From an uncultured Thermoleophilia bacterium (lineage in GTDB: Bacteria > Actinomycetota > Thermoleophilia > UBA2241), in NCBI GenBank assembly GCA_963702475.1, contig CAVPCT010000005.1:1-64000 (forward strand): a DNA stretch of 64,000 bases. The letters are read 5' to 3'. The notes under the pieces are model-generated. The model was not told the DNA's origin. It saw only the letters and a list, made by a program, of their open reading frames with translations, and did not search any database. The position numbers and the translations under genes are program-made. How positions within the stretch are numbered: the first letter of the stretch is position 1; each line of letters begins with the position of its first letter. Of this stretch, positions 4,420-27,639 are shown piece after piece.

Positions 4420-4447
4420 AGCGGACTCGCGCTGTGAGTCTACGAAC

Positions 4448-8899: not shown

Positions 8900-9822
8900 C
8901 TCGAGCCAGTCGAAGTCACGTAGCTCTCCTGCCTGCGCAGTTGCGGCGCTGGAGTACTTGGCGCATGGGGCTTCGACCGGGATCGGGTAGTTGGAGCCGG
9001 GCAAGGTGACCTTCACAGCAACGATGAAGGTCTGTCCGTTCGTGATGTCCACCCGCGAGGGCAGAGCCACAGTGTGATAGCCCATGTAGACCAGCGTGCC
9101 GCTCGCGCGCAGCGTCTTGCTCGCGAGGGCGGGTCCGGTGTAGACCTTGTAGCTCGTGCCCGGAGACAGGGTAGAGAAGCCGACGGCACCCAGGGCTGCA
9201 GTCGTCTGGGCCGTGAAGACGTTGGCGAACCAGCCAGTGGAGCTCGAATACCCGAATGCGCTGCAGTCGCCAAAGGGGTCGCACTGATAGATGCTGGTGT
9301 AGTTGCTCGTCGACTCAGCGTCGTTGAACACCGCTATGGGACTTGCCCGACCGAACTTCGAGTCGTGGTAGGAGACGTAGAAGTACCCGCCGCTGCCCCA
9401 CGAGGAGCTCCAGCTGTTCTTGACGACAGAGGCACCGTTGCCCGGAGGCGTGGTGGCGAAGCTAGCGGCGGCGTAGTTGGCGTCCCAGCCCACGATGAGG
9501 ACGCCGTGGTTGGTGCCCGACGTGCCAGTGCAGTAGTAGCTCTGCGTTGTTGCGTTGCAGCAGGCAGAGCCCGACGATGAGCCGTACCAGCCCATCGATG
9601 CATTGGCGCCGCCCAACTGCATGACAGCTTCGTTGTCGTTGTCGAGCGCACGAACCCATCACATGGGATGCCATCGACACAACGACGATCAAGCTGAACC
9701 CCTCGTCGAGCGGCGACCGTGGGCTCACTGAGTGAGCTTGCCGTTGCGGCTCCAATCACACACGCGCAGGATGAGGCCGCGGTTGGCCTCGGGTTGCGTG
9801 CTCACCCTGCCGCAGGCCAAAG

Positions 9823-9856
9823 CGCGGCGGCCCGGGATCTCTCCCGGGCCGCCGCG
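9823..9856. terminator. GC-rich hairpin (copy 3 of 3)
   Basis: CGCGGCGGCCCGGGA-TCTC-TCCCGGGCCGCCGCG, 15-bp stem, 25 nt downstream of the MCO stop. Confidence 0.72.
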
Positions 9857-9880
9857 GATGACCTCTCTTCGGCGCGAGGA

Positions 9881-12800
9881 TCAGGGTATGGTCACGGCCC
9901 CGTATGAGCTTGTCGCGCTAGCCGTCCACCCGCCCCACACCGCTGCGTCCGGTCGGTAGTACACGACAGCAGTGTACGTTCCAGGTGGGATCCCAGCGAG
10001 AGAGAAGGTGTCCGTGTATTCGTTGAGGGCGATATCGGGGGCGATGGAGAATCCAGCCGCATACCAGACGCCGGTAACGATGTTGATGACCCAAGCATTG
10101 AAGGCGCCGGCACCGACCGGAGTCGAGACCGTGAAGACGATACTGCCGGTGCCCGAAAGCCAGCTTGTGCCAGCGGCTGGACTCGTCACTGCAAGGGTGA
10201 GTGGTGACGTGATGGTGGCAGCCCCGACCGCGCTCGAGCCGTTTGCCGTCCATCCTCCCCACACCGAGGCGTCCGGGCGATAGTAGACCACTGCAGTGTA
10301 CGTACCGTCCGGAATGCCCGCAATTGAGAAGCTGTGCGTATAGATCGGCAAGCCGGGGACCACAGTGATAGTGGATCCCGCTGCATACCATGTACCCGTG
10401 ACAGTGTTGATGATCCATGCGTTGAAGGCACCGACGCTCACTGGACTCGAGAGCGTGAAGCCGATGCTTGGAGTGTTCGCCGGCCATGCGGTGCCGGCGG
10501 CGGGCGCCGTGACGGTGATTGTCGGTGTCAAGGCCGTGAACGTCGCCGTGATCGTGTGGGGCGCATTGACGCCCGTGAACGTGTACTGGCCGGTCGCTAC
10601 CGCCGTCGGGTCGTTGACGTTGTCGATGAGCACCGTGGCGCGCTGATAGCCGTTGTTCGGCGTGATCGTGTAGGTGAGGCTCCCGCCGATGGCGACCTGC
10701 GTCGCGCCGGCCGGTGTGATGCTGCCGCCGGGGGCCTGCGTCGCCGTGATGGTGACCGCGCCCTGCGCGAACGTCACGTTGATGGAATGAGCGGCCTGCA
10801 CGTTGGTGAACGTGTACGTCCCGTTCGTCAGCACCGCCGGGGCGCCGTCAACCGTCACCGTGTCGACGCGGAAGTTCGCGTTCGGCGTGACGGTGAACGT
10901 CTGGCTGCCGCCCCGGCCGACCACGACTGCCCCGGACGGCGAGATGGTGCCGTTGGCGCCCGCGGTGGCCGTGATGGTGAAGCTCGGACCGACCACACGG
11001 GTGTTCGAGAGCGACTGGACGGTCATCGTCGGGAACTCGGCCCCGTAGCCGACCCGGTTCTGGGCGATGACGCGGTAGTAGCGCGTCGTGATCGTCGGGT
11101 TGAACTGCGACGGGTCGGTGAAGGTCCGGGTCTGATGGACGTTCGGCTGGTCGAGCGGCGACTGGATCGTCGTGAGGGTGGTCCAGGTGCTGCCGAGGTT
11201 GGCGGACCGCTGGACGACGAACGCCGTCTCGGTGATGGAGTTGTCGTTCCAGGTGAGGACCGCCCTCTTCAGGGTCCCACCGCCGCTCAGTGTATTGGTG
11301 AGGTTGCTCGGGGCGACCGGCGGCAAGGCGAGGTTCTGCGGCCGCATCATGTCCATCTCTTCGTGGCTGAGGATGTGGCAGTGCCACACGTACTCCCAGC
11401 CGAAGTTGACGAGCTGGTTGGTGATGGGCGCCGTGGGGTTGCCCTGCGGGTCGATGTTGTTGAAGCCCTTGGTGGCTCCGGTCGGCATCATCGGGCTGAG
11501 GTTGCGGATGGCGTTGGGCAGCTCCCACGGGATCTGCGGGATGATCGGCCGCAAGGCCACGACGGTGTCCTCCAGCGGGGCGACGCGGATGGTGTCCTTC
11601 CAGCCCAGCTCAGCCGGGTCCGTGAGGATGATGATGTTGTCCCACGTCACGCGGTTGACCAGCTGGACGTCGTACAGGTGGAAGTGGATCGGGTGCGTGT
11701 CCACACCGTTGTGGGTGATGCGCCAGATCTGCGTGCCATCGCTGGCGTTGGACAGCGGCTGGATCTTGACGTCGCTCACCGGGTTGCCATCGGCGTCGTA
11801 GGTGATCGCCTCCCTGGGCAGGTTGGTGCCGTCGAGCAGCTCGGTCGCCGGGTTGATGAACGGGTACAGCGTGACGTTCTGGAGTCCAGGCGTCGGCGGC
11901 TGAGCTTCGAGGCCGAGGTTGGACTGCATGCGCCCGAACTCGTCGAACGTGGTGGAGTTCATCTCGTCGTGGATGGCTTTCGGCTGGAGCGGGATGGTGG
12001 TCTTGGTGGTCGGCGCCTTCAGCGTGTTGAAGCCGAAGGTCATGGTGTCGTTCACGCGCACCAGGCCGTCGCAGATGTTGAGCGTGCTGTTGGGGGCGTT
12101 GCAGTTGCTGCCCGTCGAGAAGCCGGTGCCGTAGGCGGAGTTGTAGGCTGCCTGACCGACGATGATGGGGTTCTGGCTGGACTCGAACACGCCGGAGCTG
12201 TCGGCCTTGTGGCTGAAGGCGTTGCGAAGCGCCGTCACGTTGAAGGCCGGGGCGGGCGCGCTTGCTGCGATCTTGACCTGCATCACGGTGCGGGTGTTGG
12301 GCCCGTATCCGGGGATCACGGTCGGGGCGCCGTTCGGGGCCAGGTCGGGTCCGCCGGTGTAGTAATCGTAGGACGGCACGCGGGCCGGGAACGCCGCGGG
12401 GGCGTCGTTGTACAGGATCAGGGTCTGGCCTGCGAATTGCGAGAAATCGACGATGACGTCGGCTCGCTCGGCCGGAGCCAGCAGCAAGGAGTGCAGGTCC
12501 ACATTGCCGACGTCGAAGCGCGTCGGGTCGGTGATCCACGTGGTGGGCTGTTGCCCGTCGACAACGGTGGGAGCCGGCAGGAAGCCGCCCTCGGTGCCGA
12601 TCTGGACCCAGTCAGGGCCGTAGGCGCTGTTGTTCGCACCGACGGGTGTCGGGAAGACCACGGGGTCGGTCTGCGCCTGCTGCAACAGCAGCGGGTCGAG
12701 TGCGACCTCACTCAGGGTGCCGGTGCTGGGGTCGGCCGTGTACCACTGCAGGTTGAAGAAGCGGTCGTTGGCCGCGTTGAGCACACGGAAGCGGTAGGTC

Positions 12801-15142
12801 CTGGGCTGGAGGGTCACCGTCGGATACGCCACCCCGTTGACGATCGGCGTGTCGTTGAACTGCTCCATGCCCGCCGCGATGTTCGGCGTGCCGGGGATCT
12901 GCTGCGGCTCGCAGAACGGGTCGGTCTGGTACGTCCACGTGGCCGGTTTGTTCAAGTCGCAGTTCGGGTCGTAGTACGGGTTTGCGATGGGACCGTATTG
13001 CGTGCCGACGGCGGGTGGCCAGAACCACGGGCCGTACATCCAGCGGCCGTAGGCGCTCATGCCGCTGGGGTCGCCCGGGTTCTGTGCGGGCATGTAGACG
13101 TGGTGGTACCACAAGTCGCCGTAGCTGCCCCACTTGGCCTTGTCCCAGGTCGGGTCTTGACCGTACGTGATGGTCTCCTGGGTGACGGGGTCCTTCACGT
13201 CGTACAGCTGCGCGTCCTGCGGCACGAACGTGCGCTCCTGGACGATCAGCGGGATGGTGTCCGCCGGGCCCGGGATGATGTTGTTGTTGACGAGCTGCTG
13301 TTCCGTCTTGTCGCCGATCAGGTAGCCGGCAGCTTCACCCACGTAGACGTTGAGGCGCGTGATGCCCCAGGCGTGGTCGTGGTAGAAGAGCAGCCGCGCA
13401 CTCTGCTGGTTGGTGTAATAGAAGGTCTGGATGCCGTCCCGAGGCTGATCCATGGGGGTCATGTCCGGGACATCCTTGACGCTGACGCCTTGCGGCCACG
13501 CGGTGTCCTCGTTGGCCGGCGTGACCCACTGGTGCGGCGTGCCGTCGGAGATCCACGGTGTGATGCCGCCGTGCAGATGGAGCGTGGCGCGGTTCTGCTT
13601 GAAGCAGTCCGGATCCTGAGGGTTGTCGGTGCACTTGGGGTTGCGCACACCGTCCATGACGGTGCCGCTGTCGGTGGGCGGCACCATGGCCACAGGACCG
13701 TCGCCTGAACCCATGAGGGTCGTGTCGACGGGAAGGAACAGGTTGCCCTCCACGCCGGTCGGCAACAGGTTGTGGAACGTGATGCGCACCGGCTTGTTCT
13801 TGGTGGCCGCGATGGTCGGGCCGAGCCACTGCGGCGGCGTGACGCCCTCGAGCTGGACGCCATTCTCCATCACCGCGTGCTGTGTGCCGTCCTTCCACTC
13901 GTTGAACAGAGGATACGTGGTGGCGCCGAGATGGGCGGCCTTCCACTCGGCCGTCGCGATCTGGACGTACCCGCGCACCAGAGCCCCGCCTGCCGGCAGG
14001 CTGGAGCTGAACCGCGTACGGTACTGCACCAGCCCTATGTCGTAGACGTCGGCCTTGATGGGCCCCCCGTTGGGCGCTGTGTAGTTCTTCTGGATGGGCG
14101 CTGCCAAGGGGATGTACTTGCCCAGGTTGTTGGCTGCGGCCGCGTCGGGACAGCTGCCAGGCACAGCCGGGTCGCACAGGCCGGGCAGGTCATCGATGAA
14201 CTTCTTGATCCCACCGGCCGTGAGGTACCCGGAGCCGGGATCGATGATCTCGATGGACGTCACACCGCCGGTGTCGACGGTGGCGGTGGCAGTCGCGCCG
14301 GTGCCGGCGCCGACGGCGTCGAAGATGGTGACGGTAGGCGCCGCGGTATAGCCGGCACCGAAGGTGTCGAGGGCGACGCTGAGCACCTTCAGCGTACACG
14401 TCGCGGTGGCGCCGAAGCCTCCGTTGGCGATCGGGTCCATGAGGGTGCCGTCGCGGATGACGACGGTGGGGGCAGAGGAGTAGCCGGATCCCGGATTGTC
14501 CAGCAAGATCGCGGCGATGGAGCCGTTGGGGCCAAGGGTCGCGTGACCCGTGGCAGGCGTGCCGTTCGGGTCATCGGGCAGGTCGAAGTCGACGGTCGGC
14601 AGCGTGTAGCCGCTACCGGGGTTGGCGAGCGTGATGGCATCGACGCCGCCGTACACGGTGCCCGTCGCCGCCGTGGTGGCTCCGCCGCCCGTGAACGAGA
14701 CGCGCGGGCTCTTGTACCCACTGCCGCCCGCGCCGACCGTGACACCTGTGACGGCCCCGGTGCCGGTGACTACCGCCCTCGCCGTGGCTCCCGCGCCAGC
14801 GCCGGCGAAGCTGACGGTGGCGGCAGTGTAGCCGGAGCCGGGGTCGGTGACAGTGATGCCGGTGATCACTCCATTGCTGCCGACCGAGGCGACAGCCGTC
14901 GCCGTGGTCTCATGCGCGCCGTTGATGGTCACTGTGACGTCGGGAAGCGTCAGCGGGCTGAGGGCCCAGTTGGGCCAAGGCCCGAAGTAGTGCGGGACCG
15001 TGGTGTTGTCAGTTGGATTCGCGGGTACGGCTTCGCCCTGGCTCATCTTCACCATGAACAGTGCGGTGAGCACCGCCACGATGACGAAGACCAGGATGCT
15101 CGCCTTTCCCAGCGAGATCCTCCTCAAGACCCGTGCGCTCAT
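9881..15142 (-). CDS. Giant secreted multicopper oxidase (MofA/OmpB-like) with GxGY repeats, FN3, two InlB-B-like repeats and two YYRPD repeats
   Basis: All four copper motifs: HLH (13571), HDH (13373), HPIHFH (11678), HCHILSHEEMDM (~11350-11383); likely start MSARVLRR at 15142 with a hydrophobic signal segment. Confidence 0.92.
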   Translation of the reverse strand: MSARVLRRISLGKASILVFVIVAVLTALFMVKMSQGEAVPANPTDNTTVPHYFGPWPNWALSPLTLPDVTVTINGAHETTATAVASVGSNGVITGITVTDPGSGYTAATVSFAGAGAGATARAVVTGTGAVTGVTVGAGGSGYKSPRVSFTGGGATTAATGTVYGGVDAITLANPGSGYTLPTVDFDLPDDPNGTPATGHATLGPNGSIAAILLDNPGSGYSSAPTVVIRDGTLMDPIANGGFGATATCTLKVLSVALDTFGAGYTAAPTVTIFDAVGAGTGATATATVDTGGVTSIEIIDPGSGYLTAGGIKKFIDDLPGLCDPAVPGSCPDAAAANNLGKYIPLAAPIQKNYTAPNGGPIKADVYDIGLVQYRTRFSSSLPAGGALVRGYVQIATAEWKAAHLGATTYPLFNEWKDGTQHAVMENGVQLEGVTPPQWLGPTIAATKNKPVRITFHNLLPTGVEGNLFLPVDTTLMGSGDGPVAMVPPTDSGTVMDGVRNPKCTDNPQDPDCFKQNRATLHLHGGITPWISDGTPHQWVTPANEDTAWPQGVSVKDVPDMTPMDQPRDGIQTFYYTNQQSARLLFYHDHAWGITRLNVYVGEAAGYLIGDKTEQQLVNNNIIPGPADTIPLIVQERTFVPQDAQLYDVKDPVTQETITYGQDPTWDKAKWGSYGDLWYHHVYMPAQNPGDPSGMSAYGRWMYGPWFWPPAVGTQYGPIANPYYDPNCDLNKPATWTYQTDPFCEPQQIPGTPNIAAGMEQFNDTPIVNGVAYPTVTLQPRTYRFRVLNAANDRFFNLQWYTADPSTGTLSEVALDPLLLQQAQTDPVVFPTPVGANNSAYGPDWVQIGTEGGFLPAPTVVDGQQPTTWITDPTRFDVGNVDLHSLLLAPAERADVIVDFSQFAGQTLILYNDAPAAFPARVPSYDYYTGGPDLAPNGAPTVIPGYGPNTRTVMQVKIAASAPAPAFNVTALRNAFSHKADSSGVFESSQNPIIVGQAAYNSAYGTGFSTGSNCNAPNSTLNICDGLVRVNDTMTFGFNTLKAPTTKTTIPLQPKAIHDEMNSTTFDEFGRMQSNLGLEAQPPTPGLQNVTLYPFINPATELLDGTNLPREAITYDADGNPVSDVKIQPLSNASDGTQIWRITHNGVDTHPIHFHLYDVQLVNRVTWDNIIILTDPAELGWKDTIRVAPLEDTVVALRPIIPQIPWELPNAIRNLSPMMPTGATKGFNNIDPQGNPTAPITNQLVNFGWEYVWHCHILSHEEMDMMRPQNLALPPVAPSNLTNTLSGGGTLKRAVLTWNDNSITETAFVVQRSANLGSTWTTLTTIQSPLDQPNVHQTRTFTDPSQFNPTITTRYYRVIAQNRVGYGAEFPTMTVQSLSNTRVVGPSFTITATAGANGTISPSGAVVVGRGGSQTFTVTPNANFRVDTVTVDGAPAVLTNGTYTFTNVQAAHSINVTFAQGAVTITATQAPGGSITPAGATQVAIGGSLTYTITPNNGYQRATVLIDNVNDPTAVATGQYTFTGVNAPHTITATFTALTPTITVTAPAAGTAWPANTPSIGFTLSSPVSVGAFNAWIINTVTGTWYAAGSTITVVPGLPIYTHSFSIAGIPDGTYTAVVYYRPDASVWGGWTANGSSAVGAATITSPLTLAVTSPAAGTSWLSGTGSIVFTVSTPVGAGAFNAWVINIVTGVWYAAGFSIAPDIALNEYTDTFSLAGIPPGTYTAVVYYRPDAAVWGGWTASATSSYGAVTIP

Positions 15143-15387
15143 CGACAACCCCCATCCCCTTGCGTCCAGGCGAGGCGCCCGGACCGCTGTCGGGAGCGCG
15201 TCGCAGCCTGCCCTTGCCGACCCAGCGCTCCCCAGTACGACTTGACGTTCGTTCTTGTGCTCCTGCCCGATCTGGGCAGGGCTCCCTCGCTGTGCCCGGC
15301 CGCGCATGATGAATCGCCGGCGGCCGGTTGTGAGCAAGCATGCCCCCAAGACAACGCCGCAAGTACTGACCAATTACCTGTCTTGAC

Positions 15388-15403
15388 CTAGACGAAAGGC
15401 ATA
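15388..15403. promoter_or_regulatory. Candidate response-regulator operator, copy A
   Basis: CTAGACGAAAGGCATA, 14/16 identical to 17667-17682; upstream of the MCO gene. Confidence 0.45.
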
Positions 15404-15532
15404 AGTTTCGAGGGTTCCGGGAGGCAAAAAGTGCGATCGCTCTGCAGGCGCGAGCAGCGTCAAGAGTATTCTTCCTGCAAAACGGGGCAAAAACAGGTGC
15501 GCCGCGGCCGGCGCGGCGCCCCCGCGCCGCGG

Positions 15533-16249
15533 TCAGTCCGCGGCCGGAGCCGGGCGGCCGCGGCGGCCCGAGTCGTCGCGCACCGTGCCGTCGGCCATCT
15601 CCAGGTGACGCGTACCCACGGCGATGAGGTGGCGGGCGTGCGTGACCATGAGGACGGTGAGCGCCCGCTCGGCGTGGATGCGCCCAAAGATGTCCATGAT
15701 CTCCGCCTCGGTCTCTTCGTCCAGGTCGCTGCTGGGCTCGTCGGCCAGGAGCAGCGACGGGGCGTTCACCAGCGCTCTGGCGATGACGACGCGCTGCTGC
15801 TGGCCGGCGGAGAGCTGCCGCGGGAGCGCGTCGGCGCGATGGCCGAGGCCGACCAGGTCCAGCAGCTCACGGGCCCGCCCGCGTGCATCGGGGTGCTCGC
15901 CGGAGCCGAAGTCGAGCGGCAGTGTGACGTTCTGTTCCAGCGAGAGTCCGGGGATCAGACTCGGGAACTGGAACACGAAGCCCATCGTGCGGTTGCGCAG
16001 GCGGCTGCGCTCGGCGTCGCTCATGCCCCACAGGTCCTCGCCGTTCACGGTGACGGTGCCGCTGCTCGGCGTGGCCAGCCCCGACGCGACGTTCAGCAAG
16101 GTCGTCTTGCCACATCCGGAGCGGCCGGTGATGACGAGGAACTCGCCGGACTCCACGTCAAGGTCCACGTCGCGGAGCGCCGCGAACGACGCGGCGCCAC
16201 CGTACGACTTGCCCACTCCCCGCAACGAGACCGCCGACATGCCCCTCAC
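15533..16249 (-). CDS. ABC transporter ATP-binding protein (LolD/MacB type)
   Basis: Walker A GRSGCGKT, signature LSAGQQQR, Walker B LLLADEP, VTH switch. Confidence 0.95.
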   Translation of the reverse strand: MRGMSAVSLRGVGKSYGGAASFAALRDVDLDVESGEFLVITGRSGCGKTTLLNVASGLATPSSGTVTVNGEDLWGMSDAERSRLRNRTMGFVFQFPSLIPGLSLEQNVTLPLDFGSGEHPDARGRARELLDLVGLGHRADALPRQLSAGQQQRVVIARALVNAPSLLLADEPSSDLDEETEAEIMDIFGRIHAERALTVLMVTHARHLIAVGTRHLEMADGTVRDDSGRRGRPAPAAD

Positions 16250-17448
16250 TCCCTCATGGAGACGGCCGGCTCCTGGCGCGAGGCGCGGTACGCCGGCACG
16301 AAGGCGGCGGCCGCGGCGACGGCGAGAGCGATGAGCAGACCCACGACGATCAGCCCGATGAGACTCAGGAGCGACGGCAGCAGGATCGGGAAGCCGAGCG
16401 CCGACACGAGCAGGTTGCGGAACAGGTACATGACCACGGCGGCCAGCGCGGCGCCCACGAGGCCGCCGGCGAGCGCCAGCAGACCCGCCTCGGTCATGTA
16501 CGCAAGGAGCACGTACCGCTGCGTCGCGCCGAGCGCCCGCAGCACGCCGATCTGCCGGCGCCGGTCGTGCACCGACATCCAGAAGATGACCGCCATGAGG
16601 GCCAGCGACAGCACCACGGTGAGGACGATGACCACGACCAGCGTGCGCAGCACGCCCGAGATCTGCGTGCCGTACGACCCGAACAGCTCCGCCGCCGGCA
16701 CGGCGTCGACCTCCGGCATGGCCGCCGCGATGTCCGCGGCCACCTGGTAGCGGTCGGCGCCGGCGTCGACCTTCACCAGCACCGAGGACACGTTGTCGGA
16801 CAGCACCGGCAGCTCCATCTTCGCCTTGGTACGCGAGGCGACCGCCATGGCGTCGGCTGTGGGGAACGTCATGAACAGGGTCTGGTCGAGGTTGGTGCCG
16901 GTGGCCTCCAGGTTGCCGACCAGGTCGAAGTCGTAGCCGTACAGCTTGATGTACTCCTGGTCGGCGGGCACGAACACGTCGGAGCCGCCGATCGCCTGAC
17001 CCTCACTGAGATCGCGTCCCAGCTTCTCCGCGAGCCACGGCTCGATGGTGAAATCGGTGACCGGGTCGAACGCGTACATGAACATGAGAGACACGGAGCA
17101 GCAGGAGGAATTGGCCATGGACGTGAGGTAGAGCTGAGGCGACGCGACGGCGACCCCCGGGACGTCGCGGACGCCGTCGACCACGGCGCGAGGCATGTAG
17201 GTGTTGGTCGCGTTGCCCAGGAGCAGCGCTCCCTCGATGCCCATCACCGCGCCGCGCGGGACCACGACGACGTCGGCGCCGAGGCGCTGGCGGGCGAGCC
17301 GCAGGCTCTCCTGCCCGCCGCGCGAGATGATGACGGTGGACATCACCATGCCGGCGACGAGCAGCGCGCAGAGGGCCACCAGCCAGCTGCGCAGCGGGTT
17401 GCCGGCTATGCCGGTGATGGCGATGCGGACGAGACTGCGAGGCCTCAG
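16246..17448 (-). CDS. ABC transporter permease (MacB/FtsX-like)
   Basis: One N-terminal TM, large external domain containing NSSCCS, RRRQIGVLRALGA loop, three C-terminal TMs. The frame is open upstream of GTG 17379 to a CTG at 17448 with an RBS. Confidence 0.9.
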   Translation of the reverse strand: MRPRSLVRIAITGIAGNPLRSWLVALCALLVAGMVMSTVIISRGGQESLRLARQRLGADVVVVPRGAVMGIEGALLLGNATNTYMPRAVVDGVRDVPGVAVASPQLYLTSMANSSCCSVSLMFMYAFDPVTDFTIEPWLAEKLGRDLSEGQAIGGSDVFVPADQEYIKLYGYDFDLVGNLEATGTNLDQTLFMTFPTADAMAVASRTKAKMELPVLSDNVSSVLVKVDAGADRYQVAADIAAAMPEVDAVPAAELFGSYGTQISGVLRTLVVVIVLTVVLSLALMAVIFWMSVHDRRRQIGVLRALGATQRYVLLAYMTEAGLLALAGGLVGAALAAVVMYLFRNLLVSALGFPILLPSLLSLIGLIVVGLLIALAVAAAAAFVPAYRASRQEPAVSMRE

Positions 17449-17657
17449 GTCCGCCCCTTTCTCGATGGACTGCGCCTACCGGCCGTGCCGGGACGTCTCA
17501 CGAGCGCTCCCCTCTGCCGACGCGACGACCGGGAGGATCGCCTGCGGCACCCTGTGCCGGAGTCTCAGCCCCACGGCGTGCAGGGTTTCGTGCACATGGT
17601 ACCGCCGATCCGGGCCGCCGTGCAGCTCGCGCGACTGTTGGAGGTTGACGGACGGCC

Positions 17658-17682
17658 TATGCTTGGCTGGACGAAAAGCATA
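17658..17682. promoter_or_regulatory. Candidate operator, copy B, in the divergent permease/sensor intergenic region
   Basis: CTGGACGAAAAGCATA embedded in the inverted repeat TATGCTT-N11-AAGCATA. Confidence 0.45.
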
Positions 17683-17758
17683 CGCCCCACCGACGTGCGC
17701 GAAAAGGGCGTGCCGCGTCGGCCAAGGTTCCCTGCCACTCGACCTCGATGGACGAAAA

Positions 17759-19616
17759 GTGAACGCCCCGGTCATCGTCATGGCCGTCACGGCCGGTATC
17801 TGCCTCTTCGCGGCGCTGATGAACGGCCTCGACGGACTGTCGCGGCGTCCGCGCGACAAGGTGCGCATCACCTTCGCGCTGCAGGCGCTCGCGGTGACGG
17901 CCGGCGCCCTGTCGGTCATCGCCGTGTACAGCGCGGACGCACCCGGGCAGCACATGGCCGCGATGCGCTGGGGGCTGTTTCCCTCGGGCGCCGCGTGGAC
18001 GATCGCCAGCGTGTGGCTCGTGGCCTTCTACACGGGCGTACGGCCCTTGAAGGCGCTCCTTCCCCTGACTGCAGGCCTCTGCGCGTTCGTCGTGGTGGAC
18101 CTCGCTCTGCCCACCGGGCTGCTGCACGACAGCGTCGGCGCCATCACCACCAGCAGCCTGGCGGGCTCCAAGGTGTCGTCCGTCGTCATGCCCCAGCCGC
18201 ACCCGTTGAACCCGGCCGCCGAGTTGCTCACGCTGGCCGCGTTCGTCTTCATGCTGTACGCGGCCTGGAGGGTCTACCACCGCGGCGAGCAACGCAGAGG
18301 CCTGGTCGTCGGGCTCATCATGGCCGCCCTGCTCGCGGTGAGCGTGTTCGACGCGCTCCACGCCTACGGCGTCGTGTGGGACGTCTACCTCACGCAGCTC
18401 GCCTTCACCGCGTTCGTGGTCGCCGTGAGCGTCGCGCTGCGCCGACAGTCCTCGCGCACTCGAGCGCGAGCTGGTCGCCTATCGGGGGCGCCTGGAGGCT
18501 GTGGTCGACGAGCGCATGCACGACCTCGAAGACGCGCACGAGCGACTCGCCGAGGAGTCGCGGCGGCGCCTGGCCGCGGCGGCGGCGCTGCGCCGCAGGG
18601 TCGCCGATCTCGACGGCCTCCAGCGCATCTCGCGGATCCTGGCCGATCGCAGCGATCTCGACGCGGCGCTGCACGAGGTCGCCCCCAGCGTCGCTGCATT
18701 CCTGGAGGCGGACGACGTGCGCGTCGTGCTCACGAGCGCCACGGCCGACGCCGTCGGCGAGACGACCGACGGGCGTTCCGGCCCGCACCTCGTGCCCGCG
18801 GAGAGCGCGCTCGTCGTTCCCCTCGTGGCGCGCGGTCACACGCTGGGCGCACTCCACATCTCCCGTGCCGGCGGCGAGCCGTTCAGCCAGCACCAGCGCG
18901 GGCTGGCGCAGACGGTGGCCGACGACATCGCGGCGGCCGTGGAGAACGAGGTGCTGCACGCGCAGCAGACGCGGGCCGCGACCGAGGAGGAGCGGCAACG
19001 CCTGGCACGTGAGCTGCATGACGCTGTGGCGCAGACCGTGTACTCGGCGGCCCTCATCGCCGAGGCGCTCCCCGCGGTGTGGGAGCGCGACCAGCGCGAG
19101 GGCCGCGAGAACACCGTGCGTCTCCAGCGGCTCACCCGGGCGGCGCTCGCGGAGACCCGGGCGCTCCTCTTCGAGTTGCGCCCGGCGGCCCTGGAGGCGG
19201 CGCCGCTGGAGTCGCTCCTGGAGCGGCTCGGCGACGCGGTGGCCGGTCAGTTCGGCGGCGCGGTCACCGTGGACGCGGCCGAAGGGCTGGACCTGCCGCC
19301 CGACGTCAAGCTCGCCTTCTACCGCGTCGCCCAGGAGGCGTTCGCCAACGTCGTCAAGCACGCCCGGGCGAGCGCCGTCCACCTCGCGCTCCGCAGGGCA
19401 CGGGACGGCGCCGTGGTCCTCACGGTCGCCGACGACGGCGGCGGCTTCGACCCCGGCGCCGTGCGCGCCACCAGCATGGGCGTCCGCATGATGCACGAGC
19501 GCATGGAGAACCTCGGCGCCACGCTTGTCCTCGACACCAGCCCAGGGGAGGGCACCACCATCACCGCCGTCTGGCCGGGCGCGGCAGCCGGCCGGGCGGC
19601 ACAGGAGACGATGTGA
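17759..19616 (+). CDS. Membrane sensor histidine kinase (multi-TM + GAF + HisKA_3 + HATPase), one frameshift near 18460
   Basis: About 7 hydrophobic segments in ORF 17201; ARELHDAVAQ H-box, QEAFANVVKHA, DDGGGFD and GEGT in ORF 18501; removing one base joins them. Confidence 0.9.
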
Positions 19617-19617
19617 C

Positions 19618-20247
19618 ATGGACGCTGAGCGCGTGCGAGTGATGATCGTGGACGACCACGTGATGGTGCGGGAGGGGCTCAAGGTACTGCTCTCCACCGC
19701 CCCGGACCTGGAGGTGGTCGGCGAGGCCGCCACCGGCGACGAAGCCGTCAGGCTCGTCCCGTCTCTCGAGCCGGACGTCGTGCTCATGGACATCATGATG
19801 CCGGTCATGAACGGGGCGGACGCGACGGCCGTGATCCGCGGCGAGCATCCGCACGTGCAGGTGATCGCCCTGACCAGCTACGCCGATGCCGACCTGGTCG
19901 AACAGACACTGGCGGCCGGCGCCATCAGCTACCTGCTCAAGGACTCGAGGCCCGAGACGCTGGTGCAAGCCGTGCGCGACGCGCGCCACGGGCGGGGCAC
20001 CATCGACAGCAGCGCCATGCATTCGGTCATGGAGCGCCAGCAGGCGGCCGTGGGCGTTGACCTCACCGTACGCGAGCGGGAGGTCCTCTCCCTGCTCGCC
20101 GGCGGCCTGAGCAACAGGGACATTGCCGACGAGCTGACTCTGAGTGTGGGCACGGTCCGCCTGCACGTGAGCAACATCCTCGCCAAACTCGACGCGCCCA
20201 ACCGCACCAGCGCCGCCATCATGGCCGTCAAGCACGGCCTGGTCTGA
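19618..20247 (+). CDS. NarL/LuxR-family response regulator
   Basis: IVDDH, VLMDIMMP, YLLKD, LTVREREVL..TVRLHVSNILAKL. Confidence 0.96.
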   Translation: MDAERVRVMIVDDHVMVREGLKVLLSTAPDLEVVGEAATGDEAVRLVPSLEPDVVLMDIMMPVMNGADATAVIRGEHPHVQVIALTSYADADLVEQTLAAGAISYLLKDSRPETLVQAVRDARHGRGTIDSSAMHSVMERQQAAVGVDLTVREREVLSLLAGGLSNRDIADELTLSVGTVRLHVSNILAKLDAPNRTSAAIMAVKHGLV

Positions 20248-20417
20248 GCGCGGCCGGAACGCCCGCGCGGAGCCCGGCCCGGCCGGCGACACCGAGCGTC
20301 GACGGCCGCGCGGACCCCATCCGCCCACCGTACGGTACACTCCCCGGACCGCCGGGGTGCACCGGACCGGCCGCCGAGGCGTCTCGCCGACGACAGTTCG
20401 ACCGAGGGACGGATCCC

Positions 20418-21065
20418 GTGAGCGCACGCAGCGACCATCGCCTCTTCGCCCGCATCCTCCCCTGGCTCGGGGCGTCCGTGCTGCTGGCGGCCGCCGTGGC
20501 CGGCATCGGCCTCTTCACCGGGGAGGCAATCAGCGAGCCGTCCCGGGTCGCGGCGGCGGCGGCCGGCGACATCTCGTATGGTCCGGCCGACGCCGACCTC
20601 ACGGTGCTCGAGTACTCGGACTTCCAGTGCCCCTTCTGCGCCCAGTACGCCGAGTGGCTCAAGGTCCTCCACGAACGGTACGGCGACCGGGTCAGGTTCG
20701 TCTACCGCTTCTACCCTCTGTCCACCCACGAGTACGCGACCATCTCGGCGCGCGCCGCGTACGCCGCCTGGAGGCAGGACAGGTTCTGGGAGATGCACGA
20801 CCTCCTCTTCCAGAACCAGGACGAGTGGGCTCAGTCCGAGGACCCGCGCCCGTTCTTCGACGCCTACGCCGAGCAACTCGGCCTTGACATTGAGCAGTTC
20901 CACGCCGACGCCGACTCGCAGGCGGCCATCGACTTCATCGAAGGGCAGGCCGCCGAAGGCAAGGCCGGCGGCGTGGAACACACCCCCTGGCTCGTGGTCG
21001 ACGACAAGGTGGTGCTGCCCCGCAGCCTCGAGCAGTTCGACGCCCTCGTGCGGGAGGCCCTGTGA
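20418..21065 (+). CDS. DsbA-family thiol-disulfide oxidoreductase, membrane anchored
   Basis: EYSDFQCPFC, RFYPL, QDRFWEMHDLLF, cis-Pro motif HTP. Confidence 0.93.
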   Translation: MSARSDHRLFARILPWLGASVLLAAAVAGIGLFTGEAISEPSRVAAAAAGDISYGPADADLTVLEYSDFQCPFCAQYAEWLKVLHERYGDRVRFVYRFYPLSTHEYATISARAAYAAWRQDRFWEMHDLLFQNQDEWAQSEDPRPFFDAYAEQLGLDIEQFHADADSQAAIDFIEGQAAEGKAGGVEHTPWLVVDDKVVLPRSLEQFDALVREAL

Positions 21066-21505
21066 CCCTGCGGCGCGGGATCGTGTGGGCGCTCACGGCG
21101 CTCTCGTTCGCCGGCTTCGTCATCTCCACCTACCTGACCTTCGTGCACTTCCGCGGGTACGTCTCGCCGTGCTATCTGGTGAACGGGTGCGAGACGGTAC
21201 AGACCAGCGCGTACTCTGTGGTGCTGGGGGTGCCGGTGGCCCTCGCCGGCGCCTTGTTCTTCGCGCTGATGTTCTACCTCGGCGTCGGTCTGCTGACGGC
21301 GGCGCGTCCCTGGGTGGTACGCACCGTCCAGGTGCTCGCGTTCGTCGCCGCCCTGGCCATGATCCCGCTGTTCTTTCTGCAGGCCATCGTGCTCAAGGCG
21401 TTCTGCAGCTACTGCCTGGCCACCGAGGCCGTCGTGCTCGCCATGTGGGTGCTGACCTTCCTCCTGACCCGGGCGGCGGGGCGAGAGCACGCCGTCGCCG
21501 ACTGA
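21062..21505 (+). CDS. Vitamin K epoxide reductase (VKOR) family protein
   Basis: Four TMs, loop cysteines PCYLVNGCETVQTSAYS, active-site CSYC; GTGA overlap with the DsbA gene. Confidence 0.93.
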   Translation: MTLRRGIVWALTALSFAGFVISTYLTFVHFRGYVSPCYLVNGCETVQTSAYSVVLGVPVALAGALFFALMFYLGVGLLTAARPWVVRTVQVLAFVAALAMIPLFFLQAIVLKAFCSYCLATEAVVLAMWVLTFLLTRAAGREHAVAD

Positions 21506-21509
21506 GGCC

Positions 21510-24500
21510 ATGATGGAGACGCCGGGCCGCCGCCCGCGCACGCTCTCAAGGGCGCTCGCCGCGCTGGTCGCGGCCGCGGCCCTCGCCGTCGCGGCCTGCG
21601 GCGGGGACGAAGCCGGGCCGCAGGCAGGGATCGCCCCCAAGGGCGCCACCGCCGCCGACGCCGGCGTGACCAACGGCGCCATCTCGTACACGACGCTCAA
21701 CCTCGTGACCATGATGGCGGAGCAGCCCGACCAGGTGGACAGGGTCAACGCCGCCCAGCGGGCGATCCAGAGAAGCGCCGGCAAGCCTGCTCCTCCGGCG
21801 GTCGAGCTCGACCCCGGCGGCACGCCCGACTACTTCGGCGGCTCGCCCAACTGGGCCACCAGCCCTCCCCTGCGCAAGTTCGTCGACTCCCTGCCCGGGC
21901 TCGGCGCCGGCGCGGCCAACGACCTCGGCCAGTTCATCCCGGTCGCCGTCCCCGACACGGTCACGTACCCGGGGTCTGACTACTACGAGATCGCCGTGCG
22001 TGAGTACGCGGAGCGGTTGCACAGCGACCTGCCCGCGACGACGCTGCGCGGCTACGTGCAGATGAACGTCGGCACGGGCGCGGACGGGCGCAACACGGTG
22101 CGGCCCGCGGGCATCCACTACCTCGGGCCGCTCATCCGCGCCCGCAAGGGACGCCCCGTGCGCATCAAGTTCGTGAACCAGCTGCCCACGGGCGCTGCCG
22201 GCAAGCTCTTTCTGCCGGTCGACACCACGGTGACCGGCGCGGGCACGGGCCCGGACGAGGGCGACGCGCTCTATCCGCAGAACCGGGCCTCCCTGCACCT
22301 GCAGGGCGGGCTCACGCCGTGGATCAGCGGTGGCTCGCCCTATCAGTGGGCCACCCCGAAGGGCGAGCGCTCACCGTACGCCTCGGGCCCGGGCCTCTTC
22401 CCCGTCCCGGACATGTGGTTCGACGCCGACGGCAGGCCCGTGCCCGCGGGCACGCCGGGCGCCACCAACGACCCCGGGCCCGGCGCCACGACGCTGTACT
22501 TCACCAACGCGCAGAGCGCCCGTTTCCTCTACCTGCACGACGACACCTTCGGCCTCACCCGGCTCAGCGTGTACGCCGGCGAGGCGGCGCCGTACTTCGT
22601 CGGCGACGAGGTCGAAGACGAGCTCGTCGCCGGCAACCTCGGCGACCCCGCCGGAAGCCGGGTCATCGACCGTGAGGTCCAGCCCGGCACGCTGCCGGCC
22701 GCCGAGCTCCCCCTGCTCATCGAGGACAAGACCTTCGTCCCCGGCCCGGAGCAGCTCGTGACCCAGGACCCCACGTGGGACACGCCGGCGTGGGGCGGCC
22801 TGGGCGCGCTCTGGTACCCGCACGTCTACATGCCCAACCAGAACAATGCCGACGTGAAGGACCTGAACCCGATGGGCCGCTGGGACTACCTGCCCTGGTT
22901 CTGGAAGGGGTACACGGGCACCGTGAACGGGCCGGTCGCCAACCCCCTGTACCGGCTTGCCGTCTACGAGCCCAGCGACAACCCGGGCACCCCCAACCCG
23001 TCGGCGGTCCCGAACGCCTTCTTCGACACCATGCTGGTCAACGGCACCGCCTACCCCTACGTGCGGGTCGAACGCAAGGCGTATCGCCTGCGCATCCTGA
23101 ACGCCTGCCCCGACCGCTCGCTCAACCTGCAGCTCTACTACGCCAGCTCCAACGAGTACGCCGAGACCGGCGCCGGAGGAAAGCCGCTGCTGCAGACCGA
23201 CTCCGGCGAGGTGCCGATGCTGGCGGCCGTCCCACCGGTGGCCGGCGGCTGGCCGGTCGGCTGGCCGACCGATGGGCGCGACGGCGGCGTCCCCGACCCT
23301 CGCGCCGCAGGACCCGACATGATACAGATCGCCGACGGCGGCGGCCTGCTCCCCCAGGCCGTGCCGCTGCCGACCACGCCGGTCGGGTACCTGAGGCAGA
23401 CCAAGCCCGCGGGCAGCATGGGCGGCGGCATGGGCCGGGGCACCGCGGCGGAGCGCGTGGTCGTCGACATCACGACCCGCACGCTCTGGCTGAGCCCGGG
23501 ACAGCGCGCCGACGTCGTGGTCGACTTCTCGCAGGTGCCTGCCGGCTCCAAGCTGATCCTGTACAACGACGCGCCCGCACCCTCGCCCGTCGCGGACAGC
23601 CGCCTGGACTACTACACCGGCGGCGCGGACCTCCGGGTCATCGGCGGCGGCGCTCCCACCGTGGCGGGCTACGGCCCGAACACACGCACGGTCCTGCAGT
23701 TCCAGGTGGACGGGCCGGCGGCGCCGGCATTCGACGTCGCGAGACTGCGGACCGCGCTGCCGGCAGCCTACGCCGCGGCCCAGGACCCGGTGCTGGTCCC
23801 CACCGCGGAGTACACGGCCGTGTACGGCGACGCCGCGGCCGCGGCCCCCTACTCCGAGGAGACCAGCGGCACGCTGACGTTCACGCCGCTGGACCGCGGC
23901 TACCGCCTCACGCTGCCGGTGCAGGGCAAGATGGTCAGCGAGCTCTTCGATCCGGCCTACGGGCGCAAGACGGCGACGCTCGGCGTGGACGCGCCTCTCT
24001 CCGCCAGCGGGGCACGAACCGGCGTGCCCTACTCGGCCATCGACCCGGCCACCGAGTTCGCCGCGGTCTCACTCATGGCGGACGTCCCCAAGCTCGGCGA
24101 CGGCACGCAGATCTGGCGCATCACGCACGACGGACTGCTGGAGCACAGCATCAGCTTCACGGGGGTCCAGGTGCAGGTCATCGCCCGCGGCCGCCGCGAC
24201 GGCGAGAGCATCCCGCCCGACCCCAGGGACCTCGGCTGGAAGGACACCGTGCGCCTCGACCCGCTCGAGTGGTGCCTCCTGGCGCTCAGACCGGTGGTCC
24301 CCGAGCTTCCGTTCGCGCTGCCGGCCAGCGAGCGCCTGTTCGACGTGACCAGGCCCGAGGGCGCCGAGGGCGGGTTCACCGAGCTCGACCCGGTCACCGC
24401 GGCGCCTGCCGTCGTGGTCAACGGCTCGGGTGACTACAGCTGGGAGTACGCGTGGAGCATCCACCTGCCGGGAGGTGAGGAGAGCCACATGGTCCGCCCG

Positions 24501-24803
24501 CTGGTCCTGACCGGAAGCCCGCAGGCGCCCGACGGCCTCACCGCTTCGGCGACGGGCGGGGCGGGCGTCGAGCTGCGCTGGTCCCCGTCCATCTTCCCGC
24601 CTCCGGCGAGCGGGTTCGAGGTGCAGCGGGCCACCGACGAAGGCTTCACCGAGGATCTGGAGTCGTTCGCCGTGCCGGGGGATGCCGTCACGTACAGCGA
24701 CGACGGCGCGCCGGGCGGCCGCACGAGCCACTACCGGGTGCGCGCCCAGACCGCCGCGGGATCGTCACCGTGGTCGGCTGCGGCCGACGTGGACGTGCCG
24801 TAG
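21510..24803 (+). CDS. Lipoprotein multicopper-oxidase paralogue with degenerate copper sites, C-terminal FN3
   Basis: Lipobox LAVAAC-GG; collinear with the 9881 MCO (RKFVDSLPGL, YGPNTRT, DGTQIWRITH, GWKDT) but motifs read HLQ, HDD, HSISFT and SIHLPGGEESHM. Confidence 0.9.
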   Translation: MMETPGRRPRTLSRALAALVAAAALAVAACGGDEAGPQAGIAPKGATAADAGVTNGAISYTTLNLVTMMAEQPDQVDRVNAAQRAIQRSAGKPAPPAVELDPGGTPDYFGGSPNWATSPPLRKFVDSLPGLGAGAANDLGQFIPVAVPDTVTYPGSDYYEIAVREYAERLHSDLPATTLRGYVQMNVGTGADGRNTVRPAGIHYLGPLIRARKGRPVRIKFVNQLPTGAAGKLFLPVDTTVTGAGTGPDEGDALYPQNRASLHLQGGLTPWISGGSPYQWATPKGERSPYASGPGLFPVPDMWFDADGRPVPAGTPGATNDPGPGATTLYFTNAQSARFLYLHDDTFGLTRLSVYAGEAAPYFVGDEVEDELVAGNLGDPAGSRVIDREVQPGTLPAAELPLLIEDKTFVPGPEQLVTQDPTWDTPAWGGLGALWYPHVYMPNQNNADVKDLNPMGRWDYLPWFWKGYTGTVNGPVANPLYRLAVYEPSDNPGTPNPSAVPNAFFDTMLVNGTAYPYVRVERKAYRLRILNACPDRSLNLQLYYASSNEYAETGAGGKPLLQTDSGEVPMLAAVPPVAGGWPVGWPTDGRDGGVPDPRAAGPDMIQIADGGGLLPQAVPLPTTPVGYLRQTKPAGSMGGGMGRGTAAERVVVDITTRTLWLSPGQRADVVVDFSQVPAGSKLILYNDAPAPSPVADSRLDYYTGGADLRVIGGGAPTVAGYGPNTRTVLQFQVDGPAAPAFDVARLRTALPAAYAAAQDPVLVPTAEYTAVYGDAAAAAPYSEETSGTLTFTPLDRGYRLTLPVQGKMVSELFDPAYGRKTATLGVDAPLSASGARTGVPYSAIDPATEFAAVSLMADVPKLGDGTQIWRITHDGLLEHSISFTGVQVQVIARGRRDGESIPPDPRDLGWKDTVRLDPLEWCLLALRPVVPELPFALPASERLFDVTRPEGAEGGFTELDPVTAAPAVVVNGSGDYSWEYAWSIHLPGGEESHMVRPLVLTGSPQAPDGLTASATGGAGVELRWSPSIFPPPASGFEVQRATDEGFTEDLESFAVPGDAVTYSDDGAPGGRTSHYRVRAQTAAGSSPWSAAADVDVP

Positions 24804-25074
24804 GGACGACCCACGACCCGGCGCTGCCGATGCCGCGACCTCGACGGAGCCCCGGGAAACAAGGGCGCGACGCGTGCCGGGCTTGGCGGACCGGGGTGCA
24901 GCGTGTCGGGCACTCAGCCCTGATCGCTTGAAAGCTGTCAGGCCCGAGGGCCCGAACAGGGACAACCGTCACGGCGCGCGGTAACGGTACACGACCTCCA
25001 CTCGGTCACGAAACGGCGCCCGAACTGTCGCCCGGGCGCCGGAAACGCGGGTGAGGATGTGGGCGTTTCGCGGA

Positions 25075-25218
25075 TCAGGCGGGGCCCGAGACGACGAAGA
25101 ACAGCACCAGCGCGACGAGGAACGCCACCATACCGCCGCTGGCCAGCACCGAGCTTGCCGTCGCGGTGTGCGCACGCTCCAGGACTCTCACCTGCTCCCT
25201 CTGCCCCGCCCGTTCCAT
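25075..25218 (-). CDS. Small (47 aa) protein with a C-terminal TM helix
   Basis: GGGAGGAG RBS immediately before ATG; ends GGMVAFLVALVLFFVVSGPA; hairpin near 25017-25040 downstream. Confidence 0.55.
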   Translation of the reverse strand: MERAGQREQVRVLERAHTATASSVLASGGMVAFLVALVLFFVVSGPA

Positions 25219-25269
25219 GGCTCCTCCCGCGCTTCTGTCCTCACGGTCCACTTCGGACCTCTGGTCCAA

Positions 25270-25296
25270 GTATCGACAGGAGGGGACGGAACCTAA
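25270..25296 (-). promoter_or_regulatory. Candidate sigma-28 (FliA/WhiG) promoter
   Basis: TTAG-N15-GTCGATAC versus consensus TAAA-N15-GCCGATAA. Confidence 0.4.
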
Positions 25297-25412
25297 GCGC
25301 GTTAGACGTTTGTTCCGGGAGGACTCGGCATCTGCGCGCAGGCGGGAAGGAGGGCCGGCGTGCGCGCGGCGGGACGCGGCGCACGCCTGTGGTCGTCCGG
25401 CGAGGGCGCGCG

Positions 25413-27535: not shown

Positions 27536-27639
27536 GAACTCATCTTACCGTTCCGGGAAGCCGCGGCGGCCCGGCGGCCCGCCCGTGGCGGCGCCTCGGG
27601 CGGCGCTCCGTCGGCGAGCGCCGCCGGGGACCCGCGCCG

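Follow-up and report, generated by a model that had tools for sequence, protein, structure and literature searches.

A conserved, apparently undescribed gene cluster around a giant multicopper oxidase in Thermoleophilia

Genes and layout of the oxidase cluster

We analyzed a 64,000-nucleotide (nt) stretch of DNA from an uncultured Thermoleophilia bacterium, an actinobacterium of soil and sediment (positions 1 to 64,000 of contig CAVPCT010000005.1, assembly GCA_963702475.1), referred to here as the window. Our subject is a cluster of eight genes at 9881-24803 encoding a giant multicopper oxidase (MCO), a copper-less protein of the same fold, a disulfide-forming pair, an ATP-binding cassette (ABC) transporter pair and a two-component system. 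These genes form a conserved functional unit in which known families are combined in a new way and which is apparently undescribed as a cluster. Genes were called from six-frame open reading frames (ORFs), third-position G+C content and scans against Pfam and NCBIfam; family matches and translations together recovered all eight genes that a first-pass annotation of the sequence had listed.

The active oxidase (MCOact; 9881-15142, minus strand) comprises 1753 amino acids. Its ORF opens at 15373, and the real start is the ATG at 15142, matching a 1753-residue database protein (P0124). An N-terminal signal peptide or anchor is followed by six Gly-rich repeats, a three-domain CotA-like core, and then fn3-like and repeat domains. 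By sequence, the nearest solved relatives are CotA (E 2.3e-30) and bilirubin oxidase. The gene had been described as a complete large MCO, and all 12 copper-ligand positions are indeed present (H599, H601, H665, H667, H1227, H1230, H1232, H1331, C1332, H1333, H1337 and M1342 in ORF numbering). Across orthologues of the oxidase (23 of 23), the twelve ligands do not vary, and neither do four Cys pairs besides the type-1 Cys. A hydrophobic N-terminal signal is common to the orthologues and a conserved twin-arginine pair is absent from them, suggesting that MCOact is exported via Sec. Folding, disulfide formation and copper insertion would then be extracellular, giving the neighboring disulfide-forming pair an obvious client.

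Over 1041 residues, the core of MCOact shares 67-78% identity with proteins labeled Anaerolineales, Myxococcales, Georgenia, Terrabacter, Tessaracoccus and Caldilinea, and the G+C content of its gene is 65%, compared to 71-73% in the neighboring genes. Identity at this level across phyla, combined with the lower G+C content, suggests horizontal spread of a strongly constrained active oxidase. A plasmid search with the oxidase core returned 62 records, all below 60% identity, and indicated no plasmid-borne copy; the records listed were ordinary MCOs with ~30% identity across one third of the query. The six repeats ahead of the core, each of ~40 residues with a Gly-Ser-Gly-Tyr-like center, are encoded at 14170-15142 (minus strand; ORF residues about 130-400). 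The C-terminal repeats of an ORF at 4440-5921 are also found in the last ~370 residues of MCOact, at C9:356612-358621 and at C3:736129-736818, and may represent a common surface-retention module. Pfam gave nothing significant for the N-terminal repeats, the C-terminal repeats or the membrane domain of the sensor kinase.

Upstream of MCOact lie an operator-like 30-nt motif (copy 1; 15375-15404, minus strand), 233-262 nt from the ATG, and a terminator-like hairpin with a T run (15499-15519, minus strand), 14 nt past the stop codon of the ABC ATPase gene (15533-16249, minus strand; PF00005, E 2.5e-34). On the same strand, the ATPase gene is preceded by that of an FtsX/MacB-type permease (16246-17446; PF02687, E 5.8e-19), whose first common start codon is at 17379. 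The permease/kinase intergenic region contains copy 2 of the motif (17654-17683, minus strand), 76 nt upstream of the start of the sensor kinase gene (17759-19616, plus strand). The kinase has seven transmembrane helices (7-TM) and GAF, HisKA_3 and HATPase domains. It is followed on the plus strand by a NarL/LuxR-type response regulator with a receiver and a GerE helix-turn-helix (19618-20247; likely start Met32 of an ORF opening at 19525), a membrane-anchored DsbA-like oxidoreductase (20418-21065; PF13462, E 6.8e-25), VKOR (21062-21505; PF07884, E 6.5e-23) and the copper-ligand-deficient MCO-fold lipoprotein (MCOdeg; 21510-24803, 1097 amino acids, lipobox Cys30). The spacing given for the last three genes was right: DsbA and VKOR overlap by 4 nt, and MCOdeg starts 4 nt past the VKOR stop codon.

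The hairpin after the ABC gene is strong (8 G-C pairs and a T run). Located between the ABC genes and the oxidase gene, it suggests that the latter probably has its own promoter. Note that 9500-25400 contains four terminator-like sites, a number equal to chance, with just the one past the ABC gene being strong. A sigma-70 consensus scan of the same interval returned no sites, and an Rfam scan of 9000-26000 (E up to 1) gave just three sub-threshold chance matches, none of them at the upstream motif. No RNA runs containing 15000-24900 were listed.

The 7-TM part of the kinase, a 229-residue membrane domain (17759-18445), lies upstream of the part seen earlier and in another frame, the frame being broken near 18461. 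In orthologues, where the kinase occupies one frame, the two parts start 741 nt apart, versus 742 nt in the window. Logan short-read contigs from two other studies have one base fewer at 18461/18462 (one of these contigs, of 561 nt, has two other differences). In view of the in-frame orthologues and the shorter contigs, the frameshift is an extra base in the assembly, i.e. an error, or else a rare variant. Long genes are fragmented in a similar way in the related long-read loci L006, L010, L016 and L032. The permease/kinase intergenic region is covered by contigs from three studies, and an 1838-nt contig of 97% identity runs from the permease into the kinase. Since contigs bridge this junction, the gene order of the window is not a misassembly. 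Family scans placed the GAF domain of the kinase in the cytoplasm and the regulator in the GerE/NarL type; for the membrane domain of the kinase, the Atlas offered HisKA_7TM as a lead (score 0.91).

The host had been taken for a monoderm, which fits the genome: no Omp85 gene was found at 93.8% completeness. To the left of the cluster, two papain-family (C1) peptidase and lectin-like genes or fragments (4440-7127, minus strand; 7752-8489, plus strand; 8888-9622, minus strand) surround an IS630-like helix-turn-helix ORF. The right flank (25413-30571, minus strand) carries housekeeping genes for IspG/GcpE, an NAD-dependent epimerase, an RseP-type M50 protease and Dxr. Related loci have different flanks, so the genomic context of the cluster differs in the window.

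The copper-less oxidase-fold lipoprotein

At the columns equivalent to the copper ligands of MCOact, MCOdeg has H263, Q265, H343, D345, H879, S882, T884, S983, I984, H985, G989 and M994. The type-1 Cys is absent, with Ile in its place, and 4 of the 10 His are kept; judged by these residues, the lipoprotein is incapable of holding type-1 copper. The type-1 position is occupied by Ile, Val or Leu in all 22 aligned members of the copper-less clade. These proteins are full length and 62-85% identical; the losses follow one pattern throughout, and the residues found in their place are conserved, an invariant Asp-Asp among them. Their conserved Cys are the lipobox Cys and one other. An AlphaFold model of MCOdeg based on a 65-sequence alignment (predicted local distance difference test score 82.5, predicted template-modeling score 0.86) superposed over the whole chain on CotA (5zlj) in Foldseek (E 1.9e-36, target template-modeling score 0.82). 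The C-terminal fn3-like domain scored 19 bits against PF00041, under the cut-off of 25, and many homologues carry a precomputed PF00041 match. The alignment and the model point to a maintained pseudo-enzyme, not a decaying gene.

The first-pass annotation had regarded MCOdeg as a degenerate paralogue of the neighboring oxidase. In a FastTree phylogeny of 63 large MCOs, the copper-less clade is monophyletic (support 100, stem 0.45) and nested among active enzymes of about 1100-1200 amino acids, and MCOact falls in another clade, distinct from it (support 100, stem 0.77). Over the core, the two proteins of the window are 44% identical. Being members of different subfamilies, they are not recent duplicates, and the idea of a close paralogue had to be abandoned. 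One related locus (L032) appeared to have an active oxidase of 47% identity in the position of the lipoprotein, as an ancestral state; the gene proved to be a frameshift-ridden copper-less orthologue. Independent loss of the type-1 Cys, with Gly at the column, was seen in four other proteins (P0080, P0091, P0096 and P0102; the named ones are labeled Micromonospora). The Micromonospora loci L019 and L029 each contain one large MCO within 23 kb.

A copper-less protein of MCO fold is known from the E. coli divisome, namely FtsP (SufI), a soluble periplasmic protein. As in FtsP, the three-domain oxidase fold of MCOdeg would be kept without copper for a structural or binding function. In contrast to FtsP, MCOdeg is a 1097-residue lipoprotein, linked to the cluster of an active oxidase, that nests among active large MCOs, and it is no orthologue of FtsP, its score against the NCBIfam model being 35.7 bits versus a cut-off of 581.

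Conservation of the cluster and its upstream motif

A search with the lipoprotein, using one genome per species, returned 585 relatives, of which the best 80 loci were kept. Copper-less orthologues were present in 18 further loci, comprising L001-L016 (62-73% identical), L032 and the metagenomic L113. Their record titles read Thermoleophilia or 'Actinomycetes', except for L004 and L015, which have other labels, and L113, which has no title. L004 and L015 are short contigs with 67-68% identical orthologues, labeled Phycisphaerae and Deltaproteobacteria; these labels are probably binning errors and not the true hosts. Among the 18 loci, the kinase and regulator were found in 15, the FtsX/ABC pair in 13 (with permease fragments only in L032), the active oxidase (61-75% identical) in 11, and DsbA and/or VKOR in 6. 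All misses of the oxidase, the FtsX/ABC pair or the kinase and regulator were on contigs that end early; none occurred in loci with enough flanking sequence.

The genes occur in three orders. In order A (L007-L009, L013, L014, L016 and L113), oxidase, ABC and permease genes run leftwards and lipoprotein, kinase and regulator genes rightwards, with DsbA-VKOR, if present, past the oxidase. In order B (L002, L006, L010 and L011), the oxidase gene is divergent from kinase-regulator-DsbA-VKOR, and the permease/ABC genes are divergent from the lipoprotein gene. The window resembles order B with the permease/ABC genes shifted to a position between oxidase and kinase. A metagenome scan with the lipoprotein returned 7 loci, one of them informative (L113), and the gene order of the window in none. 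In most loci the lipoprotein gene and the permease operon diverge, and in 10 related loci the lipoprotein gene lies directly upstream of the kinase gene on the same strand. An analogous pairing is MtrAB-LpqB, in which a lipoprotein is encoded with, and modulates, an actinobacterial two-component system. The likeness lies in the lipoprotein gene beside the kinase and regulator genes in those 10 loci. MtrAB-LpqB differs in gene order and shows no homology, and the lipoprotein gene of the window follows VKOR.

Conservation of content through rearrangement is our strongest argument that, as the first-pass annotation had supposed, the genes are a functional unit and more than a chance assembly. The expectation of co-occurrence was borne out within one Thermoleophilia clade, where the set recurs; across Actinomycetota and Chloroflexota, sub-modules were found but not the full eight genes.

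ORF clustering of the window and 14 other loci revealed extra conserved genes. Immediately ahead of the permease, relatives encode a DUF4418 protein (~160 amino acids, four Cys, membrane; PF14387, E 1.8e-20). It is present in L003, L005-L011, L013, L014, L016, L032 and L113, with contig-edge fragments in L004 and L012, and absent from the window and L002. Past the regulator, 11 of the clustered loci, and L113 as well, encode a lone receiver domain. Just past the receiver gene, order-A loci contain a PocR-PAS-HATPase gene (L008, 16346-17902, minus strand; L014, 16377-19642, minus strand), which is found at the same place in L006, L009, L012, L013, L016, L032 and L113, mostly with DUF2252; the window has neither.

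The 30-nt motif emerged from an alignment of oxidase upstream regions (260 nt each, 11 loci), L016 being added by a scan. It consists of two inverted 5-nt half-sites with a 6-nt spacer and lies 150-260 nt upstream of the oxidase start in 12 of 12 loci, irrespective of how the genes are arranged. When the oxidase-upstream sites alone were used to build a matrix, it detected the second window site at 17654-17683 with 27.9 bits. With a matrix from the other 11 genomes, the two window sites ranked first and second in the whole genome (4.31 Mb), scoring 37.4 and 29.4 bits, followed by a next-best match of 16.6 bits. Order-A loci, L006 and L032 have a second site upstream of the lone receiver gene. 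In order-B loci, a single site is located 10-40 nt from the kinase start, a position from which it could control both divergent operons. We infer that the NarL-type regulator binds this motif. The proposal that the unit possesses its own regulator thus gains from a predicted operator shared within the cluster, whose two best matches in the genome both fall there.

These data bear on the possibility that the genes are chance neighbors, with the copper-less gene a dying duplicate amid unrelated housekeeping genes. Signs of rearrangement in the window would be compatible with such a remnant, namely the missing DUF4418 gene, the odd start of the permease, and the IS-like ORF and broken proteases on the left, as would the low G+C content of the oxidase gene. 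However, the same content in three orders across 18 further loci, the full-length copper-less proteins with their identity and conserved replacement residues, the lack of the kinase frameshift in independent contigs and the specificity of the operator-like motif for the cluster all speak against it. The conservation data already contradict this explanation, which we consider highly improbable.

Putative maturation genes, proposed mechanism and related systems

The DsbA-like protein has the active site Cys71-x-x-Cys74 (PF13462, 88.6 bits, above cut-off). VKOR has the loop pair Cys37/Cys43 and the active site Cys115-x-x-Cys118 (PF07884, 81.8 bits, above cut-off). In the actinobacterial DsbA-VKOR pathway, known from work on Mycobacterium, a membrane-anchored DsbA-like protein operates with VKOR. 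The pair of the window corresponds to it in anchoring and in having all catalytic Cys. It differs in being embedded in, or inherited together with, a single oxidase cluster, and this in a bacterial family most of whose members have no VKOR. VKOR is single-copy in the window genome. No second DsbA/VKOR pair was found there, the only trace being a weak Thioredoxin_4 match at C3:118334.

VKOR was detected in 105 of 201 sampled genomes of the class and in 10 of 35 from the window's own family, where 15 of the 35 have a large MCO. In this family sample, a large MCO was present in 8 and absent in 2 of the genomes with VKOR; the corresponding numbers without VKOR were 7 and 18. Exactly one complete VKOR was found in each of 12 examined genomes holding the copper-less orthologue (G062 adds a partial second match). 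It is inside the locus in 7 of these: the window, L002, L003, L010, L011, L013 and L014. VKOR also adjoins a large MCO in G056, G028 and G193, three further genomes of the class. The suggestion that the cluster brings its own folding machinery is thus partly sustained: a disulfide pair is linked to an oxidase with four invariant Cys pairs, but it is the only such pair in the genome and may serve other proteins.

The permease has an outer domain of ~225 residues between its first two hydrophobic stretches, with a vicinal pair, Cys93-Cys94, and a Met-rich stretch. The vicinal pair is invariant in 10 of 10 orthologues. The conserved N-terminus of the permease (~17446) has no ATG, GTG or TTG ahead of it in the window genome. 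The ATPase belongs to the LolD/MacB/FtsE-like branch, and the pair falls in no named equivalog (LolCDE, FtsEX, MacB, DevCA), scoring for example 45 versus a cut-off of 362 for LolCE and 202 versus 308 for LolD. Type VII ABC systems (MacB, LolCDE, FtsEX) work by mechanotransmission at the outer face of the membrane, and several act on lipoproteins or activate extracellular enzymes. The features of this type are present here, i.e. the FtsX C-terminal domain, the large outer domain and the separate ATPase. Unlike the known systems, the pair has no MacA-type adaptor, carries the vicinal Cys pair and, in relatives, is accompanied by DUF4418. The sole DUF4418 gene of the window genome is at C5:533487-533759 (L090), 516 kb off, beside a second ABC ATPase and FtsX permease. 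Its product shares 47% identity with the DUF4418 proteins linked to the cluster in relatives, and DUF4418-FtsX-ABC looks like a recurring trio.

Among the loci examined, the full gene set was not seen outside the one Thermoleophilia clade. Parts of it were. The 7-TM kinase and the regulator adjoin an active oxidase of the same type in L055 and L064 (both titled Thermoleophilia) and in L093, all from the same class. Permeases with the same vicinal Cys pair are beside active oxidases of the same signature in L069 (Actinomycetota), L080 (Anaerolineales) and L070 (Methanomicrobiales), and L070 and L080 carry DUF4418 as well. In 20 further Actinomycetota neighborhoods, an FtsX/ABC pair of another subtype was found in 4, an ABC ATPase alone in 3 more, and a kinase with regulator in 1. 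On our reading, the active oxidase type is what both the kinase/regulator and the DUF4418-FtsX-ABC trio go with, whereas the copper-less lipoprotein and the tie to VKOR are peculiar to this clade.

The large-MCO family also occurs in contigs labeled as methanogens or other anaerobes, including L070, L072 and L073 (Methanomicrobiales/Methanoregula), L040, L041 and L049 (Aminicenantes), and L039 and L046 (Coriobacteriia). In L070, an oxidase retaining every copper motif has DUF4418, two FtsX permeases and an ABC ATPase as neighbors. Why methanogens and other anaerobes would have an O2-reducing enzyme is puzzling, and binning errors are possible. Further members are in contigs labeled Anaeromyxobacter, Polyangia and Desulfobacterales.

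We regard it as moderately probable that the cluster is a self-regulated, conserved module that produces and controls a single large surface oxidase. According to this model, the 7-TM/GAF kinase would phosphorylate the NarL-type regulator, which would bind the 30-nt inverted repeat both ahead of the oxidase gene and beside its own operon and, in the window genome, ahead of the permease genes as well. MCOact would be exported unfolded via Sec, and its four Cys pairs would be oxidized outside the cell by the membrane-anchored DsbA, with VKOR re-oxidizing DsbA. The FtsX-type ABC pair, to which most relatives add the four-Cys DUF4418, would act on the outer face of the cell membrane in maturation of the oxidase. 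This assignment draws on the cross-phylum adjacency to oxidases, on the Cys-Cys pair and Met-rich patch, and on the established behavior of type VII ABC systems. Because the outer domain of the permease carries the invariant Cys-Cys and the Met-rich patch, the likeliest roles of the pair would be copper hand-over, or release and positioning. The role of MCOdeg is the least certain part of the model. The lipoprotein could be a non-catalytic, membrane-tethered accessory, serving either as a dock for the oxidase or the ABC pair, or as a co-sensor of the kinase. As to the substrate, our guess would be a metal ion or else a phenolic, encountered at oxic/anoxic interfaces.

Several observations weigh against such a module. 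DsbA and VKOR, the sole pair of this kind in the genome, may be general housekeeping proteins acting on other secreted proteins. Of the 15 large-MCO holders in the family sample, 7 have no VKOR, and in 5 of the 12 holders of the copper-less orthologue VKOR is elsewhere in the genome and not adjacent. One genome of 82% completeness (G171) has a 61%-identical copper-less match, and no VKOR was found in it. The counts across related genomes come from close kin and are not independent, several genomes with G handles being the same as those of L loci. With the window's proteins as queries, DsbA, VKOR and DUF4418 were found in none of the 20 distant Actinomycetota neighborhoods. The window itself is without the DUF4418 and the lone receiver genes of most relatives, and its permease lacks an ordinary start codon; this copy of the cluster may be partly decayed. 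Finally, no operator-like site was detected in the DUF4418/MCOdeg intergenic region, and in most relatives the copper-less gene may not belong to the regulon.

Among described arrangements, the CopRS/CopO/TlpA regulon of Corynebacterium glutamicum comes closest: copRS is divergent from an operon of a secreted MCO and a thioredoxin-like protein, and expression is copper-induced and CopR-dependent (PMC3140484). Both are actinobacterial and combine a divergent two-component system with a secreted MCO and a thiol-disulfide protein, and the C. glutamicum regulator binds the shared intergenic region (PMC3140484). In contrast, the regulon is described there with an OmpR-type regulator, an oxidase of ordinary size and a copper P-type ATPase (PMC3140484). 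The copper-less oxidase homologue, VKOR, the FtsX-type ABC pair, the NarL-type regulator and the 7-TM/GAF kinase are features of our cluster and not of the regulon so described, and no P-type ATPase gene is present in 9881-24803 or its flanks.

This precedent raises the possibility of a copper-stress island, in which the oxidase would detoxify Cu(I) in the manner of CueO or CopO, the two-component system sense copper, DsbA/VKOR repair or replace thiols damaged by copper, the ABC pair with its Cys/Met-rich outer domain clear copper from the membrane surface and the copper-less protein act as a copper buffer. Besides the C. glutamicum case, a link between copper and disulfide chemistry has been reviewed for the Scs proteins (PMC10907172), and the Cys-Cys pair and Met-rich patch of the permease and the four Cys of DUF4418 would suit soft-metal binding. 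Nevertheless, we consider such a role unlikely. Neither the cluster nor the conserved gene groups of orthologous loci include a P-type ATPase, CopZ, CsoR or CopC/D. The NarL-type regulator and a kinase without outer sensor domain are unlike CopRS and CusRS, a multidomain surface oxidase of 1753 residues is far bigger than cuprous oxidases, and members of the family are in contigs labeled as methanogens and other anaerobes.

Mineral or metal redox had been proposed by analogy to OmpB of Geobacter and MofA of Leptothrix. Here the oxidase would oxidize Mn(II) or Fe(II), or contact metal oxides, with the copper-less copy as a binding subunit. OmpB and MofA are from diderms and are encoded in clusters with a peptidyl-prolyl isomerase, a cytochrome c-like protein or an SCO1/SenC chaperone (PMC5566968). 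The resemblance, which is one of description, consists in a very large extracellular MCO with fn3-type domains, putative in our case, and with surface repeats as in OmpB, next to presumed folding or copper helpers (PMC5566968). The occurrence of this DNA in sediment and wastewater metagenome runs, with near-identical contigs in the three examined, would also be in keeping with metal redox. The cluster differs from the OmpB/MofA clusters, however, in having no isomerase, cytochrome or SCO1/SenC gene: nothing resembling mofB or mofC and no such copper chaperone is found in it or among the conserved neighbors. Moreover, the nearest solved relatives, CotA laccase and bilirubin oxidase, act on organic substrates, and nothing in the sequence favors a metal. 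The metal-redox proposal amounts to a guess, and one that appears distinctly improbable to us.

No print description of this gene combination was found in the open literature, subscription journals and bioRxiv supplements lying outside the search, in line with the first-pass remark that none was known. This covers MCO clusters with VKOR and DsbA, MCO clusters with FtsX, lipoprotein and two-component genes, and any tie of DUF4418 to such a cluster. Writings on Thermoleophilia MCOs or copper-less paralogues, in the portions accessible, likewise yielded no description.

The folding and copper loading of large secreted copper oxidases are poorly understood in bacteria of the Gram-positive type. 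The cluster joins an enzyme, a disulfide pathway, a mechanotransducing ABC pair, a pseudo-enzyme and a private regulator, and in doing so provides a defined gene set with a predicted operator. The copper-less clade is a clean case of a pseudo-enzyme kept beside an active relative. A bolder version of the self-regulated module is that the lipoprotein, the Cys-Cys ABC pair and DUF4418 constitute an extracytoplasmic, ATP-driven machine that metallates or activates Sec-exported giant oxidases, with the pseudo-oxidase as template or dock. We hold this to be a long shot; if true, it would be a new route of copper-enzyme biogenesis, with an ABC/DUF4418 core common to bacteria and methanogenic archaea. 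The active oxidase is currently annotated merely as 'multicopper oxidase domain', and any function found for it would transfer to thousands of environmental proteins.

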